NCBI GenBank assembly: GCA_007134485.1
Contig: SLKT01000040.1
Location: forward strand, 16,696 to 80,695
DNA: 64,000 nt
Source: Wenzhouxiangella sp.
Lineage (GTDB): Bacteria > Pseudomonadota > Gammaproteobacteria > Xanthomonadales > Wenzhouxiangellaceae
Direction: 5' to 3'
How positions within the stretch are numbered: the stretch's first letter is position 1; the number at the start of each line of letters is the position of its first letter. A program made the position numbers and the translations under genes. Shown in pieces: positions 366 through 10,285 of this stretch. The notes below the pieces were generated by a model, which saw only the letters and a list, made by a program, of their open reading frames with translations, made no database searches and was not told the origin of the DNA.

Positions 366-761
366 TCAGGGCGCCAGGACCAGGACCTTGAACTGGCTTG
401 GGGCCAGTGAGGCGCCGGGCGCATTGGTGCTGTTTTGCATCGACATGCTGGTGACTCGGGTGGCCGGCATGCCACCGGTCAGGGTCGTGAAGGACCCGGT
501 CAGGTGCCGTGACGGGCCCATGACCATCCCCGATGCCACGCCCGTGCCTACCCCGGCATTGTCACCGTTGGTAAAAGGCGTTGTTGTTCCAAGGTTATGT
601 GCCGGCATGCCGGCAACCAGGATATTGGTCACATTCGGAATGGCGGTCATCCCGGTGGCTATATTGGGATAGGGCACAGGCACCGGACCAACCGGACTCG
701 GTGTGTTGCAGACATCCGGAAAGGCCATGTTCATGCCGCCCATTTGTGTATTGGAAAACAT
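366..761 (-). CDS. DUF4150 PAAR-like spike-tip protein, stand-alone (TagD-5-like)
   Basis: FPDVCNTP...PVPVPYPN motif typical of DUF4150; 131 aa with no toxin extension; downstream of vgrG. Confidence 0.9.
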   Translation of the reverse strand: MFSNTQMGGMNMAFPDVCNTPSPVGPVPVPYPNIATGMTAIPNVTNILVAGMPAHNLGTTTPFTNGDNAGVGTGVASGMVMGPSRHLTGSFTTLTGGMPATRVTSMSMQNSTNAPGASLAPSQFKVLVLAP

Positions 762-764
762 CGC

Positions 765-1427
765 TCACCCCAACTGGATCTGATCGGCGTCGATCTTGCC
801 GAGCTCGTCGGCCTTGGCAAGAATATGCTCACCCCGCAAGGTCATCGCATTGCGTGCCCTGAGGTCCAGCTGTCCTGCCTGGACTCGGTCCATTTGTTCG
901 GTCTTGCGGATAAAGGTCCGGGCCGACTGATGATGCTGGTCAGCGACGGTGTCCATTCTCCGGGTCACCGTTCGAATACGCTCAAAGGTTGTTTCCAACC
1001 GCTCGCCTACCCAACTTGCCGCCTTGCAGAAATGCTCGGCCAGCGCCGTGGAAAAACGGATCACCGGTCCATGAATCGAGACCAGGCGGTCACTGCCCAG
1101 ATCGAGTGCTTCTGCAGCACGCACCGACAGGCTGCCCGACGGACATTCAATCTCGACATCACCGGCGAAGCGCAATTTCAGATCACGACTATCATCACGC
1201 TCGAGGATGGCCAGAATCCAGCAGTCGGAACCGGCACAAAGTGCGCTGACACGGTCGCCCGGCTCGGGCGTCACCAGGCAGCTGTGCGCCACCGTGGCCA
1301 GACGAACAACGCCATCGTCCGACTGAATCTGCCACAGGCCGCCCTGTTCACCATGCACCACCCCAAGACTGTACTCGGGACTTGCCACCGGGTCATCAGG
1401 GATCATTGGCTTCTGCTCTACTTTCAT
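765..1427 (-). CDS. DUF3540 family T6SS accessory protein (TagC-5-like)
   Basis: SCLVTPEPGDRV...WILAILER motif, C-terminal KIDADQIQLG; lies between pentapeptide and DUF4150 genes. Confidence 0.85.
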   Translation of the reverse strand: MKVEQKPMIPDDPVASPEYSLGVVHGEQGGLWQIQSDDGVVRLATVAHSCLVTPEPGDRVSALCAGSDCWILAILERDDSRDLKLRFAGDVEIECPSGSLSVRAAEALDLGSDRLVSIHGPVIRFSTALAEHFCKAASWVGERLETTFERIRTVTRRMDTVADQHHQSARTFIRKTEQMDRVQAGQLDLRARNAMTLRGEHILAKADELGKIDADQIQLG

Positions 1428-1437
1428 CTTCTACTCC

Positions 1438-2565
1438 TCAGTCAATTGCAGGAGACCATTGTTCAGCCTCGAGTCTTTTTTGATCGGTGGAAAGCGCCAA
1501 CTTGCGATCCGGAAAATGTGCATCATCTTCGATCGCCTGGTGAAAGTTGGCCCGAAACAACGAACAATCCTGGAAATCTGCCGAACTCAAGTTGGCATGT
1601 GAGAAATCGGCATAGGTCAATTCCATACCACTGAAATCAGCCCCTTGGCACTGGGCCGCTTCCCAGCTTGACTGCCAGGCGGAACTGCCGGTCAGCTTGG
1701 CGCCATCAAGCCTTGCCTCATTGAACAAGCACTGAGTCAGATCGCAACCGGAAAGCTCCGCCTCTTCAAGGAATGCCTTGATGAAGATTGCATTGGCGGC
1801 AACCGAGCCGGCCAGCCTTGCGCCGGACAGCTTGGCCTCGGTGAAATTGCACTGAACAAGTTGGCAATCACGCAGATCGGCGCCAGTCAGGTCGGCATTG
1901 GCCAGTTGTGAGCGTGACAGATCCATGCCATGCAGATCCATGCCTGACAGGTCGGTGCTGATCAGTGTGCACATATCAAATCGAGCGCCGCGTAGATTTG
2001 AGCCCCGCAACGAGCCCTCACATACGATCAATCGTTCCAGGTTGGTTTCCTGAAAGTCCAGGCGAATGAGCTTGCTACTGGCAAACACCGTGTAGCTGAT
2101 GAGCGCATTGCGAAAGTCGGTATCGTGGATGGTGCAGGAAATAAAGCTGGTTCTTTCGAGGGCGGCCGAGCGCAGATCAACTTGATTGAGAACTGACTCG
2201 ACGAAATGAGCATCCCCGAATGAGCATTCAGACATATCCACTGTCTGCAACACGCAATCGTGGAATGTACATTCCTGGCCATTGACAGCATGAAGGCTTG
2301 AACCGGACAGATCACACTCTGTCAGCAATGTTTCCTTAAGCTTGGCATTGGCCAAATTGGCGTCAATCAGCTTGCAATCCGTCATCACCGCCTCTTCCAG
2401 GTTGGCCGATGACAAGTTGCTATTGCTGAAATCAACATCGGAAAAAATGATGCCAGACAAATCAGCATTACTCAGATTGACTCCGACAATCCGTGCATCT
2501 TCGACCACTCCGTGATTTCTCACGTGACGTCGGATGGCTCCCCGCGAACTCAACTCAATGGTCAT
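1438..2565 (-). CDS. Pentapeptide-repeat protein (TagB-5-like)
   Basis: Almost all of the 375 aa are A(D/N)LXX-type repeats (NLSNADLSG, ANLANAKLKE, ADLTGADLRD, ADFSHANLSSADF). Confidence 0.92.
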   Translation of the reverse strand: MTIELSSRGAIRRHVRNHGVVEDARIVGVNLSNADLSGIIFSDVDFSNSNLSSANLEEAVMTDCKLIDANLANAKLKETLLTECDLSGSSLHAVNGQECTFHDCVLQTVDMSECSFGDAHFVESVLNQVDLRSAALERTSFISCTIHDTDFRNALISYTVFASSKLIRLDFQETNLERLIVCEGSLRGSNLRGARFDMCTLISTDLSGMDLHGMDLSRSQLANADLTGADLRDCQLVQCNFTEAKLSGARLAGSVAANAIFIKAFLEEAELSGCDLTQCLFNEARLDGAKLTGSSAWQSSWEAAQCQGADFSGMELTYADFSHANLSSADFQDCSLFRANFHQAIEDDAHFPDRKLALSTDQKRLEAEQWSPAID

Positions 2566-5209
2566 GGTGTTGCTTCCGATCTTGCAGGCGGGGATAGATA
2601 TTCATGCGCCTGGTCAAGGCTTCGTCGATACGGGTTTTCTTGTCAGCGATAATCCGGGCCAGGTCTGCTGCGTAAAGGTTGGCCTTGTCAAAGGTCGCAC
2701 TACGCAGGTCAGCCCGGTGAAAGACACTTGAGATCCAATTCGCTCCGGTCATATCGCATTCTCTGAGATCCGCCCGCACCCATCTTGACTCGGGACCATG
2801 GGATTGACGGAATGAACTCCCGCCCGCGTTTACCTCACTGAAGTCGGCCTGGTCGAGTCGCGAATGACTGAAGTCGCAATTGAGCAGATTGGCACCAAAC
2901 CAGTTGGTTCGGCCAAGATTGGCCGACTGAAAACTGCTTTGAGAAAAGTCACAACCCTTGACAAACACGACCTTATCCAGGCTGGCATGGCCGAAATCTG
3001 AACTGCGCCCTGTACAGGCCACGAATACCACCTTGCCCAGAGTTGCCCCCTGCCAATTTGTATTGCCCAGCGAAGACTTGAGGAAAATCGATTTCTGGAA
3101 TTCCACCTCGGAAAAATTACAGCTATCCATGTTCATTTCGAGAAAAACGAGGTCCTGGCCCTTGACGGCGGAAAAATCGCACCGGCGGATTCGAGCCTGC
3201 AAGAACACCTGCATACCCGAAATGACAGCTCCACTGAAGTCCGAATCACCGATTCGGGCCGATTCCAGCACGGTATCTTCAAGACTGGCCTGCCTTGCCG
3301 TGACCTGGATCAGACTGGCCTTGCCCAGATTGGCCTCATCCAGACAGGCGCCGTCCAGGTTGGTTTCGCGCAGATGCGAGTGGGCCAGTACCGCACCCGA
3401 AAGATTTGCGCCACTAAGGTTGGTTCGGGTGAGCACAGCCGATTCCAGGAATACCCCGGACAAATCCCGACCGGCCAGATTCAGCCCGCTGAGATCAACA
3501 CCGCAGAAATCCATCCCGGAAACACTTTGCCCATTGGCCAGCATGGCGATCAGTAACTTGACCTGTTCACTGGAACTGCCCAGGGCTTTGACCGGCTTCT
3601 GGTGATGCGCGCTGATTCGATACAGGTCCTTCAAGCCATGCTCGGATTCCTTCCACTGCTCGAACACGGCCGGATCATCAAGCATGGCTTCCAGCTCAGC
3701 CGGATCGGCCCCCAACTCCCGCACCCGCCTGATTTGTTCTTGCAAGTCCTCCAACATGGCTTGTGCGTTGAATTTTGGCGGCCCCAGCCCCTGATCATCA
3801 TCCTTGAGCACTTCATCCATCGAGAAATCCAGTTCAGGGCGCTTGTCCAGTTCCTGACTGATCCGGTCTCGCGCTTCATCCCGACGCTGGTAACCCTCGA
3901 GCATGGAGTCATACATCAACTGGTACTTCTCATTCAGATAAGCCTCGAGATCATCCGGATCCGGAAGATCCGACGACTGATCGAGGTCCGGCGTTGCATG
4001 CTCGGGAAATTCGTGACCCAGTTCCCGCGTCTTTTCACGGGCCTCCTTTTGCGCGGAATCCAGTCTGTCTTCAATATTGCGAACCAGTGCAGACTGATCT
4101 TCATCACCAAGCTGGTCAAGTACATCCTGGACCACGGATCTGGCCAGACCGGTGGGCATCAGGGGCTCATCGTTGATCATGTCCAGCATGTTCTCCCCCG
4201 GGTCCAGCCGACGATTCATGACCGCATGATAATGATCAAGTGTTCGTGCCTGTTCCGGAAATTCAGCGCCCAGTATCAGCGTTTCGACATCATGGGCATC
4301 ATACTCGGCCACACCGATGCTGCCCTGGTAAACAAGAACCAACAGCTCAACCTCGGGCAGAAACCACAACGTCGTCAATACGGTCTTGGCCTCATGCAAG
4401 ACCTGCTCCTGCTTGAGGCGATAAAAACAACGGGTCCTCAATTGCGGCACCTCGCCCTCCAGCACGGGTTGGTCAGCGTGCATGCCCTGGATCCGAAATC
4501 TTTCACCGCCGTTCCAAAACCCATCGGACCATTGATCGGGTGAGGCCATATTGAAATATTCCCAGCCGATATCATCCGGAAAGCCCGGGAACCGAGTTTT
4601 CAACCAGGCATCATCATGTGTACCCGCCAGCGTCCTGCGTTGCGGCCAAGATACATCAAGCGGCCCCAGTCCGGCCGGATCAGGACGCTGGCTCTTGAGG
4701 CCAACCGGTTTTTTCGGGTCTTCAATATTGGGCAACGGCCAGCGCCCGGCATTCGGTCCCGCATCGATCTTGTGCATGCCCTTGCCCAATGGATTGCGCT
4801 CAAATCCTTCGCCGCCAAACGCGTATTGCCAGTCCATCGGCAAGACCTCGAACGGTTGCGGCTGGGTGATGCGATCACCTTCGAAATAACGATCGCCGAA
4901 AACTCTCAGCTCCTTGACATGCTCACCCACCTGAATCCTGAGCGGCATGGCCTTGATCGGCTTTCCGCCCGGTGCATGGGCATTTCCGACAACCAGAAAC
5001 TCGCCATGTTTTTTGGGGATGCCTGCATCCAGGATTCCATGCTCGCCCAGCTCCGGCAGGGCTTGCTGCCATAATTCGGCTTCCATTAACATCTCCAGGT
5101 CCCGCAGCAAGGGCACCGCAGCGATGATGGAAAAACCGAGATACGCCCGAGCGCCATACTCAAACGGACGCGTGACCACGCTCAACTGAAGGGGCTTAAC
5201 GATTCTCAT
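2555..5209 (-). CDS. DUF2169 adaptor/chaperone fused to C-terminal pentapeptide repeats (TagAB-5-like)
   Basis: N-terminal DUF2169 motifs (LDAGIPKKHGEFLVVG, ELRVFGDR, YAFGG, NPLGKG, DDAWLKTRFPGFPDD), acidic helical linker, about 300 aa of pentapeptide repeats; first gene after vgrG. Confidence 0.9.
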   Translation of the reverse strand: MRIVKPLQLSVVTRPFEYGARAYLGFSIIAAVPLLRDLEMLMEAELWQQALPELGEHGILDAGIPKKHGEFLVVGNAHAPGGKPIKAMPLRIQVGEHVKELRVFGDRYFEGDRITQPQPFEVLPMDWQYAFGGEGFERNPLGKGMHKIDAGPNAGRWPLPNIEDPKKPVGLKSQRPDPAGLGPLDVSWPQRRTLAGTHDDAWLKTRFPGFPDDIGWEYFNMASPDQWSDGFWNGGERFRIQGMHADQPVLEGEVPQLRTRCFYRLKQEQVLHEAKTVLTTLWFLPEVELLVLVYQGSIGVAEYDAHDVETLILGAEFPEQARTLDHYHAVMNRRLDPGENMLDMINDEPLMPTGLARSVVQDVLDQLGDEDQSALVRNIEDRLDSAQKEAREKTRELGHEFPEHATPDLDQSSDLPDPDDLEAYLNEKYQLMYDSMLEGYQRRDEARDRISQELDKRPELDFSMDEVLKDDDQGLGPPKFNAQAMLEDLQEQIRRVRELGADPAELEAMLDDPAVFEQWKESEHGLKDLYRISAHHQKPVKALGSSSEQVKLLIAMLANGQSVSGMDFCGVDLSGLNLAGRDLSGVFLESAVLTRTNLSGANLSGAVLAHSHLRETNLDGACLDEANLGKASLIQVTARQASLEDTVLESARIGDSDFSGAVISGMQVFLQARIRRCDFSAVKGQDLVFLEMNMDSCNFSEVEFQKSIFLKSSLGNTNWQGATLGKVVFVACTGRSSDFGHASLDKVVFVKGCDFSQSSFQSANLGRTNWFGANLLNCDFSHSRLDQADFSEVNAGGSSFRQSHGPESRWVRADLRECDMTGANWISSVFHRADLRSATFDKANLYAADLARIIADKKTRIDEALTRRMNIYPRLQDRKQHHDH

Positions 5210-5262
5210 AGGCGCTGAACGAGTTTACCTCCACATCAGACAGATTGCGTGCAAGAGGTCGC

Positions 5263-7518
5263 TCACAAGTCGATTTTCAGGTCGCTCAGATCGACTTCGA
5301 AGTCTCCGATACACAAATCCACTCCCTTCTTCGCCAGGTTGGTCAGACGCTTCTGCAAGGCAATCTTTTCTTTCATCATTTTGATGTGGGACATCTTGAG
5401 TGTGAACAGGGTCTTCGACGCATCCATGCCGGTCACGCCCATATTTATAGCTTTGAGATCCACATTAAGGCCTGCGATTACGGAGACCGCCGTGGTCTTG
5501 AAATCGGATGTATTGCCCGCGACTCCAATGGTGCTGCCCTGCAGATTGATCTGGAATTCCCCGAAGTGCGTATGGTGCGGGACGGTCAGGGTGATCTGTC
5601 CGCCTGATATGAGGTCAATGTCCTTCTTGGACTCGATCTTGATTTTCCCATCAACATCCTTTTTCCATTTGCCGCCTACCTCCTCAATCTGATCACCACC
5701 GACATCACGCTCCTCATCACCCTTGACTTCAAATTCTCGATCACCCTCGACAGTCACCGTCTGCTTGCCCTCGACAGTCGCTGTCTGTTCGCCCTTGACG
5801 GTATCGGTATCGTCTCCTTCTACCGTGCGCGTATCATCACCTTCTATGGTTTGAGTTCGATCCTTCTTGACATCGATTGTTTCGTCACCTTCCACCAGTA
5901 CCGAGCGATCATTCTCGACGCTGACATCCATATCCCTTTCAGCATGAATGGCGATCCTTTCTTCGCCCTTCTTGTCCTCGAAACGAATCTCGTTGAAATT
6001 ACCCGTCCCGCCTTCCGGCGTGCTACGGGTCTTTACGCCGGACTGCGTGGCATCCTCGAATGGAGGCCGATTTTCACCGTTGTAGACCGCCCCGGTAATG
6101 ATCGGTCGATCAGGGTTGCCATCCAGGAACTCAACGATCACTTCATGGCCAATGCGCGGAAAAAAGAACGCACCCCATCCCTTTCCGGCCCAGGCCTGCG
6201 ATACGCGCACCCGGCAGGAACTGTTCTCGTCATGTTTTCCTTCCCGGTCCCAATGAAACTGGACCTTGACCCGACCATGGTCATCAACATCGATTTCCTT
6301 GCCTTCGGGGCCTACCACGACTGCAGTCTGCGGACCATGAACGATGGGATGCGGTGTTTTCCGCTTTGGCTGGTAAGTAACACTGGACGGAACGGCCGTC
6401 AGGGTGACACGATAGTCGACCTCCTCGTCGACCCAGGTGCGCGTGTGGTCGTATTCAGGTAAAGTCAGTTCATGGCGAGTTGTACTGACCAGATATTCTC
6501 GCTCCTGATCAGAGCGATCGTGGTGGTCAAGCTTGAACTGATAACCCGGCACCAGGGTTCGAATTCGCCCTTGCCCAGCCAGCACCTCGAATCCAGACTG
6601 CATTTCCTCTTTTCGTATCGTGGCTGCACGAACCAGGGGGCCGGTACTGATTTCATCACTTCGATGTTGAGGGAAGCGCGCCGGATAGTCGTAATGTTCC
6701 AGGGAAACCGAACCGGGGCCGGCAAACTCCTCCGATTCCTGAACCTTTGACTTGGCCTCCATGAGATTGGGCTGCATGTAGTTGTAGTCACGCAACTCCA
6801 CGGACTCGATCCTGATCTCCCGCCGCATGCGCCAATCATGGATATGCAGCCCAGGGCCTCCCTCGGCATCCGGATCCCAGACCACCGTATCCATTTCATC
6901 CGAAACGTCCGAATGAGCGACGGATAATGGATCATGAACAGTCGAGTCATCGGCCAGAATCAGGACATGTTTTCCATCTTCGTGACGGAAGAAGTAATGA
7001 ATCCCCTCTTCTTCCATCAAACGCGAGACGAAGTCGAAATCACTCTCACGGTACTGGACGCAGTAATCGCGAACCGGGTAATCATCAACACCCAGTTCAT
7101 CCAGAAAATCACTGAGACCATGATCCTCGAAAACTTGCTTGATGATTTCCGGTGTCGCGCGATTCTGGAAAATCCGGCTGTTGCGTGTCCGGGTCAAAAA
7201 CCAGAGCCAGGGTCGCAAGCGAACATGGTAGACGGCCAGGTCGGAGGCACGGAAACCGACAAATGACATACTTGTGATGTTGCCACAGAACCAGCGCTTG
7301 CCACCTTTGACAGCTTCGAGCTCAACCTGGGCATGGCGGCCCAGCAATTGATCAAGGTCGATATCTGTCCGACTACTCTTGTCTCCCAAAACAACCAACT
7401 CAAACTCGAAAAGCTCGCTGATCCCCTCGTTCCCTTCAAAGCGCTGCAGGACGAGAAAATCCTCATCCTGTCCATCGATCAGAAATTTCGCCTGGCGGTT
7501 GCCCTGTATCTGAACCAT
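5263..7518 (-). CDS. vgrG: T6SS spike protein VgrG with gp5-type repeats and short C-terminal extension
   Basis: YCVQYRESDFDFVSRLMEEEGI, GPQTAVVVGP, GRVKVQFHWDR, PRIGHEVIVEFLDGNPDRP, NEIRFEDKKGEE; 8-aa VEGD repeats. Confidence 0.97.
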   Translation of the reverse strand: MVQIQGNRQAKFLIDGQDEDFLVLQRFEGNEGISELFEFELVVLGDKSSRTDIDLDQLLGRHAQVELEAVKGGKRWFCGNITSMSFVGFRASDLAVYHVRLRPWLWFLTRTRNSRIFQNRATPEIIKQVFEDHGLSDFLDELGVDDYPVRDYCVQYRESDFDFVSRLMEEEGIHYFFRHEDGKHVLILADDSTVHDPLSVAHSDVSDEMDTVVWDPDAEGGPGLHIHDWRMRREIRIESVELRDYNYMQPNLMEAKSKVQESEEFAGPGSVSLEHYDYPARFPQHRSDEISTGPLVRAATIRKEEMQSGFEVLAGQGRIRTLVPGYQFKLDHHDRSDQEREYLVSTTRHELTLPEYDHTRTWVDEEVDYRVTLTAVPSSVTYQPKRKTPHPIVHGPQTAVVVGPEGKEIDVDDHGRVKVQFHWDREGKHDENSSCRVRVSQAWAGKGWGAFFFPRIGHEVIVEFLDGNPDRPIITGAVYNGENRPPFEDATQSGVKTRSTPEGGTGNFNEIRFEDKKGEERIAIHAERDMDVSVENDRSVLVEGDETIDVKKDRTQTIEGDDTRTVEGDDTDTVKGEQTATVEGKQTVTVEGDREFEVKGDEERDVGGDQIEEVGGKWKKDVDGKIKIESKKDIDLISGGQITLTVPHHTHFGEFQINLQGSTIGVAGNTSDFKTTAVSVIAGLNVDLKAINMGVTGMDASKTLFTLKMSHIKMMKEKIALQKRLTNLAKKGVDLCIGDFEVDLSDLKIDL

Positions 7519-7528
7519 GAGCTATCTC

Positions 7529-10285
7529 TCAGTCAAAAGTGTAGCGAAATGCCTCATCGGCCACGTCCACCTTGATCTGTTTAACCTCATCGCCTTCCAG
7601 GCGCCGAGTCAGCAACTCGCGGCTGACCTCCGGCAGAAGCGTATTGGTCAGAATGGCATCGATCATTCGACCACCGCTCTCCAGTTCCTTGCAGCGACTG
7701 ATGACCAGGTCAATGACATCGTCACTGTAGGTGAATGGCACCTCGTAGTGATCGGTGACACGCTTCTCGATCCGGCCCAGTTGCAGGCGGGCAATCTGGT
7801 CGAGCACAGCATCGCTGAGTGGATAATAGGGAATGACCACCAACCGGCCCAGCAGTGCGGCCGGAAAGACTTTAAGCAAGGGCTCGCGTAGCGACTTGGC
7901 CAGGCTATCGGTATCCGGCATCAGATCCGGATCCTGGCACATGTTCATGATCAGGTCACTGCCGACATTGGATGTCAGCAGAATGATGGTGTTCTTGAAA
8001 TCAATCAAACGGCCTTCACCATCTTCCATGACCCCCTTGTCAAAGACCTGGAAGAAAATCTCGTGGACATCGGAATGCGCCTTTTCCACTTCGTCAAGCA
8101 GCACCACGCTATACGGTTTGCGCCGAACCGCTTCGGTGAGAATGCCACCTTCTCCATAGCCGACATAGCCGGGAGGTGCACCCTTGAGGGTCGATACGGT
8201 ATGTGCTTCCTGAAATTCGCTCATATTGATGGTAATGAGATTGCGCTCACCGCCGTACAGCGTCTCGGCCAGGGCCAGGGCCGTTTCGGTCTTGCCCACG
8301 CCGGAAGGGCCGGCCAGCATGAATACACCGATCGGCTTGGACGGATTGTCCAGCCGGGCGCGGGCGGTCTGGATGCGCTTGGAAACCATGCTCAGGGCAT
8401 TATCCTGGCCCACCACACGCTGCGACAAGGTCTGATCCAGATTCAGAACCGTGCGCAATTCATCCTTGACCATTCGCCCGACCGGTATGCCGGTCCAGTC
8501 AGCCACCACGCTGGCGATCGACTGCTCATCGACGGCCGGATGCAGCAATGGTGTCTCACCCTGGACCTCGACCAGCTTGTCGTGCAATGTCTCCAGTTCG
8601 GCCAACAAGGCTTCACGATCGATCTCTTCGTCCTCATCCTGCGCATCCTCCTCAGCCTTCTTATCCTCGGCTGCGTGATCGGACCCGTCATCGTCCTCAC
8701 GCAATTCCTCGGCCTCTTCCAGTGCCTGGGCCGCCTCCTCGACCACTTCCTTTTCAGGATGCAGCTTCTGGCGAATGTCGAGAATCTGTGCGACCAGATC
8801 CTTCTCGCCGTTCCAACGCTCCTCTAGCTTTTCGCATCGCTCTTTCTCCTCGGCCAGTGCAGCTTCAACCCGGTCACGTCGATCACCGATGGCAATGCCG
8901 ACATCCTCCTCGCGTCCGATGATCTCAAGCTCCAGTTCCAGCGCCTGGATGTTTCGTCGACAATCCTCGAGTTCGGCCGGTACGGCGTGTAAGGCCGTGG
9001 CCACCCGGGCGCAAGCGGTGTCCAGCAGGCTGACCGACTTGTCAGGCAACTGGCGGTCGGGAATGTAGCGACTGGACAGTTTGACCGAGGCTTCCAGCGC
9101 TTCGTCAAGGATCAATACCTTGTGATGGTTTTCCATGGCCGGCGAAATGGCCCGCATCATGCGGATGGCCTTGTCGATGGCCGGTTCGTCAATCTTGACC
9201 ACCTGAAAGCGCCGAGTCAGCGCCGGATCCTTTTCAATGTGCTTCTTGTACTCGGCCCAGGTTGTCGCGGCAATGGTTCGCAACTCGCCACGGGCCAGTG
9301 CCGGCTTGAGCAAGTTGGCCGCATCGCCGGTACCGGCAGAACCACCGGCGCCGATCAGTGTATGGGCCTCGTCAATGAACAGGATGATCGGCTTGGGTGA
9401 GGATTGCACTTCTTCGATCACGTTCTTGAGACGGTTCTCGAATTCACCCTTCATGCTGGCGCCGGCTTGAAGCAGTCCGACATCAAGCACACGCAGGGAA
9501 ACATTCATCAATGTCGGCGGTACATCGCCGCGCGCGATTCGCAAGGCAAAGCCTTCCACCGCGGCGGTCTTGCCGACACCCGCCTCACCGGTGAGAATCG
9601 GATTGTTCTGCTTGCGTCGCATCAGAATGTCGATGATCTGGCGAATCTCTTCGTCACGACCGACGATATCGTCCATTTCACCCTTGCGAGCCTTTTCGGT
9701 CAAATCAATGGAAAACTGCTGCAAGGCTTCCATCTTGCCATCGCCGCCGGGCCGGGCGTCACTGGCCTCTCCGGGCTCTCCCTGCTCTTCCAGTCCCGAG
9801 TCACGCTCCTCGATGGAACCGGAGGTGATCTCGTCGAAATCGTCTCCGAGTTGCTCGGGTTTGATCTTCTTGAATTCAACGGAAATATTGAGCAGCGCAT
9901 TGCGCAAGCTTGACGTCTTGAGTATCCCCAGCAACAGATGCCCCGAGCGGACCTTGCGTGCGTTGTACAGCAAGGAGGCCCACACCCAGGCGCGCTCCAC
10001 CGCCTCTTCGAGATGAGATGACAGGTCCGAGATCGAGGTTGCCCCGCGCGGCAGGCGATCAAGTGACTCGGTCATGTCCTTGGCCAGACGCGATGGATCA
10101 ATATCGAAATGCTTGATGATCTGTTGCAAATCGGAATGTTCGACCTGCAGGATCTGCTGAAACCAGTGCACCAATTCCACGTACGGGTTGCCCCGCATCT
10201 TGCAGAAGACGGTGGCACTTTCTATGGCCTTGTAGCAGGTGCTGTTAAGTTTGTTGAACAGTGCAACACGCGAAATTTCTGCCAT
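7529..10285 (-). CDS. tssH: T6SS AAA+ ATPase ClpV/TssH
   Basis: Two Walker A motifs (GEAGVGKT, GPSGVGKT), ClpV-type N-terminus, GAPPGYVGY loop. Confidence 0.97.
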   Translation of the reverse strand: MAEISRVALFNKLNSTCYKAIESATVFCKMRGNPYVELVHWFQQILQVEHSDLQQIIKHFDIDPSRLAKDMTESLDRLPRGATSISDLSSHLEEAVERAWVWASLLYNARKVRSGHLLLGILKTSSLRNALLNISVEFKKIKPEQLGDDFDEITSGSIEERDSGLEEQGEPGEASDARPGGDGKMEALQQFSIDLTEKARKGEMDDIVGRDEEIRQIIDILMRRKQNNPILTGEAGVGKTAAVEGFALRIARGDVPPTLMNVSLRVLDVGLLQAGASMKGEFENRLKNVIEEVQSSPKPIILFIDEAHTLIGAGGSAGTGDAANLLKPALARGELRTIAATTWAEYKKHIEKDPALTRRFQVVKIDEPAIDKAIRMMRAISPAMENHHKVLILDEALEASVKLSSRYIPDRQLPDKSVSLLDTACARVATALHAVPAELEDCRRNIQALELELEIIGREEDVGIAIGDRRDRVEAALAEEKERCEKLEERWNGEKDLVAQILDIRQKLHPEKEVVEEAAQALEEAEELREDDDGSDHAAEDKKAEEDAQDEDEEIDREALLAELETLHDKLVEVQGETPLLHPAVDEQSIASVVADWTGIPVGRMVKDELRTVLNLDQTLSQRVVGQDNALSMVSKRIQTARARLDNPSKPIGVFMLAGPSGVGKTETALALAETLYGGERNLITINMSEFQEAHTVSTLKGAPPGYVGYGEGGILTEAVRRKPYSVVLLDEVEKAHSDVHEIFFQVFDKGVMEDGEGRLIDFKNTIILLTSNVGSDLIMNMCQDPDLMPDTDSLAKSLREPLLKVFPAALLGRLVVIPYYPLSDAVLDQIARLQLGRIEKRVTDHYEVPFTYSDDVIDLVISRCKELESGGRMIDAILTNTLLPEVSRELLTRRLEGDEVKQIKVDVADEAFRYTFD

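Follow-up and report, generated by a model that had tools for sequence, protein, structure and literature searches.

The window (the whole 64,000-nucleotide stretch of Wenzhouxiangella sp. DNA that was analyzed) contains a complete T6SS cluster on the minus strand, with genes encoding TssM, TssL, TagF, PppA, TssA, TssB, TssC, Hcp, TagJ, TssE, TssF, TssG, and ClpV. The ClpV gene is followed, in this order, by genes for VgrG, a DUF2169-pentapeptide fusion, a pentapeptide protein, a DUF3540 protein, and a DUF4150 PAAR-like protein. This five-gene order is that of the Class III Tvp module (TvpAB/TvpB/TvpC/Paar1, called TagAB/TagB/TagC/TagD in Burkholderia). The DUF3540 gene, tvpC, is located near the 3' end of the cluster, and only the PAAR-like gene and a kinase gene lie beyond it. 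The module is composed of the following features.

5263-7518, minus strand: cognate VgrG, 751 aa (Pfam, periodicity, and AF2 monomer model)
2555-5209, minus strand: tvpAB/tagAB-type DUF2169 plus pentapeptide-repeat fusion, 884 aa (Pfam DUF2169, E 1.3e-78, and Pentapeptide)
1438-2565, minus strand: tvpB/tagB-type pentapeptide-repeat protein, 375 aa (Pfam Pentapeptide, E 3.8e-58, and conserved synteny)
1434-1437, minus strand: GGAG ribosome-binding site of tvpC, 6 nt before the ATG (sequence reading)
765-1427, minus strand: tvpC/tagC-type gene (P0002) for a 220-aa DUF3540 protein (ORF translation and Pfam PF12059)
366-761, minus strand: PAAR-like cap gene, 131 aa, Tox-PAAR-like/DUF4150 (Pfam PF13665, E 8.9e-37)

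At the very edge of the window, positions 2 to 349 of the minus strand encode the first 116 aa of a kinase-type ORF that follows the PAAR-like gene and is cut by the window boundary. It shares 50% identity (E 1e-33) with a 673-aa Pkinase-matching protein encoded behind the PAAR gene on contig L028 of a relative. The ORF resembles a PpkA-type kinase, is no pseudokinase, and may represent the ppkA gene that seems to be "missing" from the cluster.

The tvpC ORF runs from an ATG at 1427 to a stop codon at 765 to 767, and the coordinates given in the first-pass annotation are correct; the ORF is real and lies on the minus strand. The genes are tightly packed: the GGAG of tvpC stands right behind the TGA of the upstream pentapeptide gene, and 3 nt separate the tvpC stop codon from the ATG of the PAAR-like gene. 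TvpC matched the Pfam DUF3540 profile at E 2.9e-47 (161.6 bits; cut-off, 27.9) over positions 2 to 199 of its 199 positions. In Pfam searches, no second domain was found in TvpC at E values up to 10, including a gp27-like/Phage_GPD base; Phage_base_V was absent even at E 10, and DUF6484 (PF20093) was not matched. DUF3540 relatives numbered 1268 cluster representatives at E values up to 0.001. Their lengths lay between 201 and 248 aa, with almost all at 205 to 235 aa, so the family is uniform, and the identity of TvpC to the representatives beyond its own clade was at most 47%. The nearest named relative, and the one relative found in a single-protein search, belonged to a sediment Gammaproteobacteria MAG. 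The family alignment showed no run of 7 to 10 conserved columns. TvpC is a new DUF3540 member of the Class III Tvp module, for which a role has already been described in the 2026 study of Serratia.

The DUF3540 family was called entirely unstudied before 2026 (PMC11883445). TvpAB, TvpB, and TvpC were then named in Serratia marcescens by Monlezun, Earl, and Coulthurst (bioRxiv, February 2026; EMBO J 45:5101; PMC13373197), who found that VgrG1-dependent firing needs TvpAB, TvpB, TvpC, and Paar1. In the mass spectrometry of that study, VgrG1 pull-downs contained TvpAB, TvpB, and Paar1 and lacked TvpC, and TvpC pull-downs contained TvpAB, TvpB, and Paar1 and lacked VgrG1. The TvpC complex still formed without VgrG1, whereas the VgrG1 complex depended on TvpC. 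[quoted passage not shown] In Burkholderia, TagC is required for sheath assembly (PMC13584744).

The window protein shares with Serratia TvpC the DUF3540 family, a similar length, a short disordered N-terminal tail, and an OB-fold plus repeat stalk without gp27, and the neighbors (VgrG, a DUF2169-PRP fusion, a PRP protein, and a small DUF4150 PAAR) are also the same. In contrast to the Serratia arrangement, the window module lies inside the main T6SS cluster, right after clpV-vgrG, and its vgrG is followed by tvpAB without intervening immunity or effector genes. Moreover, Serratia VgrG1 has an exceptionally long prism, whereas the 751-aa VgrG of the window does not. The gene order tssF-tssG-clpV-vgrG-tagAB-tagB-tagC-tagD of the Burkholderia T6SS-5, in which TagC-5 (BPSS1506/BTH_II0860) is likewise a DUF3540 protein (PMC6335564 and PMC13584744), is the same as that in the window. 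The two differ in that tssJKLM follow tagD in Burkholderia T6SS-5, whereas in the window this place is taken by a kinase gene and tssJKLM are found at the opposite side of the cluster. The DUF6484 Class II TvpC proteins (PA0096 and VP1395) share the proposed role of a gp27-less OB-fold trimer that holds the PAAR protein before VgrG does, but their stalk, at 28 A, is much shorter, and their Pfam family is not that of the window TvpC.

Synteny was compared at 15 loci from within the genus, from elsewhere in the gammaproteobacteria, from further classes of the phylum, and from Myxococcota, including Panacagrimonas and Chondromyces. The genes for TvpAB, TvpB, TvpC, and the PAAR-like protein were clustered at all 15 loci. 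A VgrG gene was present in or near each cluster, directly before the module at most loci and in a different order at a few. The PAAR-like protein was the best-conserved partner, mostly at 55 to 71% identity and at 29 to 45% in the most divergent loci, compared to the lower identities of TvpC (25 to 33%) and VgrG (about 26 to 43%). The distribution of DUF3540 was patchy: it occurred in 7 of 36 same-genus genomes and in 12 of a phylum-wide sample of 401, 8 of them above the Pfam cut-off, and was not found in 24 genomes from other families of the same order. In two distant genomes (G436 and G239), the order was TvpAB, TvpB, PAAR-like, VgrG, and TvpC (L035, 9330 to 17052, and L036, 9607 to 18090). 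The VgrG-like protein of L035 has 582 aa with about 90 residues past the OB domain and no Phage_GPD match, and the TvpC gene begins 16 nt after its gene.

The genome that contains the window also carries a second, orphan Class III Tvp module (L003; contig C153:14000-30000, genes at 1779 to 9529). It encodes a VgrG of 729 aa, a DUF2169-PRP protein of 775 aa, a PRP protein of 634 aa, a 303-aa TvpC variant (P0009), and a Tox-PAAR-like protein. Similarity of this variant to DUF3540 was limited to its last 109 aa (hhalign probability, 97%), and no family was matched by its first 190 aa.

Within the 220-aa TvpC of the window, four segments were delimited.

1200-1376, minus strand: N-terminal OB-fold, residues 18 to 76 (AF2 strands, Foldseek, and the invariant C50 and D58)
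999-1190, minus strand: beta-prism-like segment, residues 80 to 143, with a repeat of about 8 residues (periodicity, DUF2345 matches, AF2, and covariation)
768-998, minus strand: eleven 7-residue rows, residues 144 to 220, ending in the tip motif (row layout and covariation)
768-809, minus strand: C-terminal tip motif, residues 207 to 220, the presumed PAAR-binding platform (family conservation)

The motifs quoted in the first-pass annotation are all found in this layout, with GVV at residues 22 to 24, PEPGDRV at 54 to 60, and ILAIL at 71 to 75, as are the repeats LETTFER/IRTVTRR/MDTVADQ (144 to 164) and FIRKTEQ/MDRVQAG (172 to 185) and the C-terminal KIDADQIQLG.

The AF2 monomer of TvpC was built on a 113-sequence alignment and had a mean pLDDT of 80. 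Behind a low-confidence tail of about 17 residues, the model contained five strands (residues 18 to 28, 31 to 36, 41 to 46, 59 to 65, and 68 to 76) at a pLDDT of about 95. When this model was compared to the PDB with Foldseek, the top matches were OB-folds, namely, the RsgA/YjeQ N-domain (E 2.4e-4), IF1, eIF1A, and CusF. At rank 26, the anti-feeding prophage was represented by its Afp8-like spike (6rbk_C), and P2 gpV (3qr8), for which such a comparison had been proposed, was indeed recovered at rank 34 (E 7.4e-3; 152 columns), beneath other OB-folds. The search against BFVD returned generic OB-folds and a few minor tail proteins only. Since both the AF2 strands and the Foldseek matches are those of an OB-fold, the fold is confirmed at the fold level. 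The most conserved parts of TvpC are the tip motif and an OB motif, A-x-S-C-L-V-x-P-x-x-G-D-R-V, in which Cys50 and Asp58 are invariant. When the OB region was aligned to the VgrG OB region with hhalign, 13 of 100 column shuffles scored as high as the real alignment. The resemblance of the TvpC OB-fold to the gp5/gpV type is thus at the level of the fold only and is not detectable by sequence. The protein had initially been proposed to be a second, miniature spike of the gpV/gp5 type; the OB-fold, the DUF2345 matches described below, and the published fold support this proposal, but a gpV-type OB domain could not be recognized by sequence.

In residues 80 to 143, hydrophobic residues followed a period of about 2 within a repeat of about 8 residues (7.8). 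Weak matches to DUF2345, the prism extension of VgrG, were obtained for 44 of 113 family members (best E, 5.2e-5), always at residues of about 75 to 130; in the reverse direction, the DUF3540 model gave sub-threshold matches in two VgrG ORFs, in the DUF2345/prism region. The AF2 monomer showed the segment as extended at a pLDDT of 85 to 91, just as a monomer model of the window's VgrG showed its bona fide beta-helix, and covariation at lag 8 was detected (p 0.024). Residues 80 to 143 bear the hallmarks of a VgrG-type prism. The family profile aligned only weakly with the C-terminal part of the window's VgrG family (hhalign E, 0.0043; probability, 8%), and BLASTP of TvpC against VgrG yielded no match. 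Sequence searches of the PDB, whether started from the single protein or from the family profile, returned marginal matches only, comprising designed Pizza propellers, uS17, and a SNARE chain, with the VgrG structures 8gra and 6sjl at E 0.4 to 0.8.

The segment that follows, residues 144 to 220, was laid out in eleven rows of 7 residues, and hydrophobicity autocorrelation at lag 7 was +0.35 for residues 144 to 190. To measure covariation, mean-field direct-coupling analysis was applied to 262 sequences (Neff, 233). Because a first pass was dominated by the indel columns 112 to 119 and 128 to 147, the analysis was limited to gap-free stretches. In residues 148 to 220, lag 7 was by far the strongest (mean, +0.79 versus a background of +0.11; Mann-Whitney p, 1.3e-13) and lag 2 came second (p 3.5e-8), while the helical lags 3 and 4 were weak; the lag-7 ladder was unbroken from 149 to 216. 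This indicated that the 7-residue spacing is a property of the family and not a product of chance. The known 8-residue beta-helix of VgrG, examined on a noisier alignment, gave analogous covariation at lags 8 and 2 without enrichment of lag 3. The lag-7/lag-2 pattern suggests stacked strands. The cognate VgrG itself comprises a gp27-like base, an OB domain, 8-residue gp5 repeats, and a C-terminal extension of about 140 aa. At window positions 5263 to 5700 (minus strand; VgrG residues of about 610 to 751), the period turns to about 7 after the gp5 repeats, the same register as in the TvpC stalk, with a period of 7.2 for residues 620 to 700 and a lag-7 autocorrelation of +0.33 for residues 700 to 751. 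The AF2 model of VgrG had a pLDDT below 50 for residues 649 to 751 and permitted no tip comparison with TvpC, and the tails of VgrG proteins encoded beside Tvp modules were too diverse for a profile.

The first-pass annotation had described these rows as beta-type repeats at roughly 7-residue spacing. The spacing was upheld by the row layout and the lag-7 covariation; the beta nature was shown in part only, since the AF2 monomer of the window TvpC forms one long helix at residues 130 to 182 (pLDDT up to 89), in contrast to the beta-prism published for Serratia TvpC. We therefore considered the possibility that residues of about 130 to 182 form a trimeric coiled-coil neck between a beta-prism at 80 to 128 and a beta tip at 186 to 220, in a protein with the same chaperone role. 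This arrangement would account for the single helix in the monomer, given that the VgrG beta-helix stayed extended in a like model. It is also consistent with the family hydrophobic moment, which peaks in this region at a period of 3.6 with 3-4 spacing, with the lack of proline in all 262 sequences and the low glycine content of the stretch, and with marginal profile matches of residues 138 to 190 to SNARE and coiled-coil chains. However, covariation favored lags 7 and 2 over lags 3 and 4 without interruption from 148 to 220, V, I, T, F, and Y are abundant in the stretch, and the Serratia orthologue was modeled by AlphaFold, both as a trimer and in the pre-complex, as a beta-prism throughout, at a pLDDT above 90 (PMC13373197). 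Neither Chou-Fasman propensities nor the Pro/Gly content discriminated between helix and strand. In the Serratia model, the heptad-spaced residues F138, L152, and I159 are surface residues that are buried by TvpAB helices (PMC13373197), and burial of heptad hydrophobics in this manner would explain the amphipathic pattern of the stalk. On this evidence, the assembled TvpC trimer is likely to contain a continuous prism, and a coiled-coil neck is rather unlikely. Since the monomer model and the hydrophobic moment, which point to a helix, conflict with the covariation and the published complex, which point to strands, there is also a slim chance that residues of about 130 to 185 act as a structural chameleon, adopting a helix or coiled coil when TvpC is free and a beta-prism with a 7-residue step when TvpC is clamped by TvpAB and TvpB. 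If so, this change of fold could power the transfer of the PAAR cap, together with the chaperones, from TvpC to VgrG.

The stalk ends in the family consensus ..LVK.DG.QIHLG, in which L209, K211, D213, Q216, and I217 are nearly invariant and G220 is invariant. In Serratia, the tip mutations V210Q and D199R/D204R/D206R abolished the function of TvpC without loss of the protein (PMC13373197). When mapped by consensus, I217, L219, D213, and D215 of the window protein probably correspond to these tip residues. The earlier suggestion that the DUF3540 protein carries the DUF4150 tip is supported by the adjacent gene at all loci, by the Serratia model with Paar1 on the TvpC tip, and by the tip mutants (PMC13373197).

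Considered together with the published work, the window TvpC (TagC) is, quite probably, a part of the Class III Tvp T6SS module that mimics the spike, holds the tip cap during assembly, and then hands this cap to VgrG. Three copies would form a miniature VgrG needle without gp27, made up of the OB-fold (residues 18 to 76), a trimeric repeat stalk (residues 80 to 220), and the conserved blunt tip. The DUF4150 PAAR-like protein would cap this tip, the DUF2169 domain of the 884-aa fusion would shield a hydrophobic surface of the cap, and the 884-aa and 375-aa proteins would wrap their pentapeptide solenoids around the stalk. The resulting cytoplasmic pre-complex would be an assembly intermediate in which the 751-aa VgrG subsequently takes the place of TvpC, VgrG alone having the gp27-like base that would be needed to seed the Hcp tube, and TvpC would be absent from the fired spike. 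TvpC is read as a temporary surrogate that is replaced by VgrG because the Serratia pull-downs were mutually exclusive and because the VgrG1 complex needed TvpC. The pre-complex, the exclusivity toward VgrG, and the essentiality are known from S. marcescens alone, and by analogy the same presumably holds in this uncultured gammaproteobacterium. In its predicted layout, with an OB-fold, a trimeric repeat needle behind it, and a blunt end that takes a PAAR-type cap, TvpC matches P2 gpV, T4 gp5, Mu gp45, and the VgrG needle; unlike these spikes, TvpC is not attached to a gp27/gpD hub and, according to the Serratia data, stays outside the injected structure.

A different arrangement had been put forward in the first-pass annotation, namely, a two-tier spike in which the OB-fold base of TvpC docks on the tip of VgrG, lengthens the needle, carries the cap, and is fired along with it. 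TvpC does have the layout of a spike, with its OB-fold and repeat stalk, and is encoded beside the cap gene; at L035, moreover, the gene for the short 582-aa VgrG-like protein is directly upstream of the DUF3540 gene. In addition, non-secretion was stated in the Serratia paper for TvpAB and TvpB only, and no statement on the secretion of TvpC was found there. The proposal does not agree, however, with the reciprocal Serratia pull-downs, in which TvpC and VgrG1 captured the same partners and excluded each other, TvpC being replaced by VgrG1 (PMC13373197). Furthermore, the VgrG of the window is itself already extended at its C terminus, by about 140 aa that show a period of about 7. Docking of an OB-fold trimer on a VgrG tip is not known from other systems, which also counts against stacking. 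A two-tier spike is therefore considered highly improbable. Least credible of all is a role for TvpC as secreted cargo in its own right or as a mini-spike that substitutes for VgrG: it is spike-like and its Serratia counterpart binds the cap (PMC13373197), but it has no toxin domain, its 220 aa conform to the uniform length of the family, a full-length VgrG gene is always nearby, and TvpC cannot seed Hcp because it lacks a gp27-like domain. In Serratia, moreover, a vgrG1 vgrG2 double mutant lost T6SS firing even though its tvpC was intact.

The reading of TvpC as a spike mimic that surrenders its cap to VgrG implies a replacement step, whose mechanism is still to be resolved according to the authors of the Serratia study (PMC13373197); how VgrG displaces TvpC is a question that the literature has raised before. 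The 7-residue covariation register, the ambiguity between helix and prism at residues 130 to 185, and the second module with its 303-aa TvpC variant are mildly new, and the ambiguity in the central stalk of TvpC is of interest to specialists. For the organism, an uncultured sediment gammaproteobacterium, these results confirm an intact Class III Tvp spike-assembly kit that lies within the core T6SS cluster. For the family, the 7-residue covariation register, the DUF2345 cross-matches, and the invariant tip provide independent family-wide sequence support for the published AlphaFold picture of TvpC as a mimic of VgrG.
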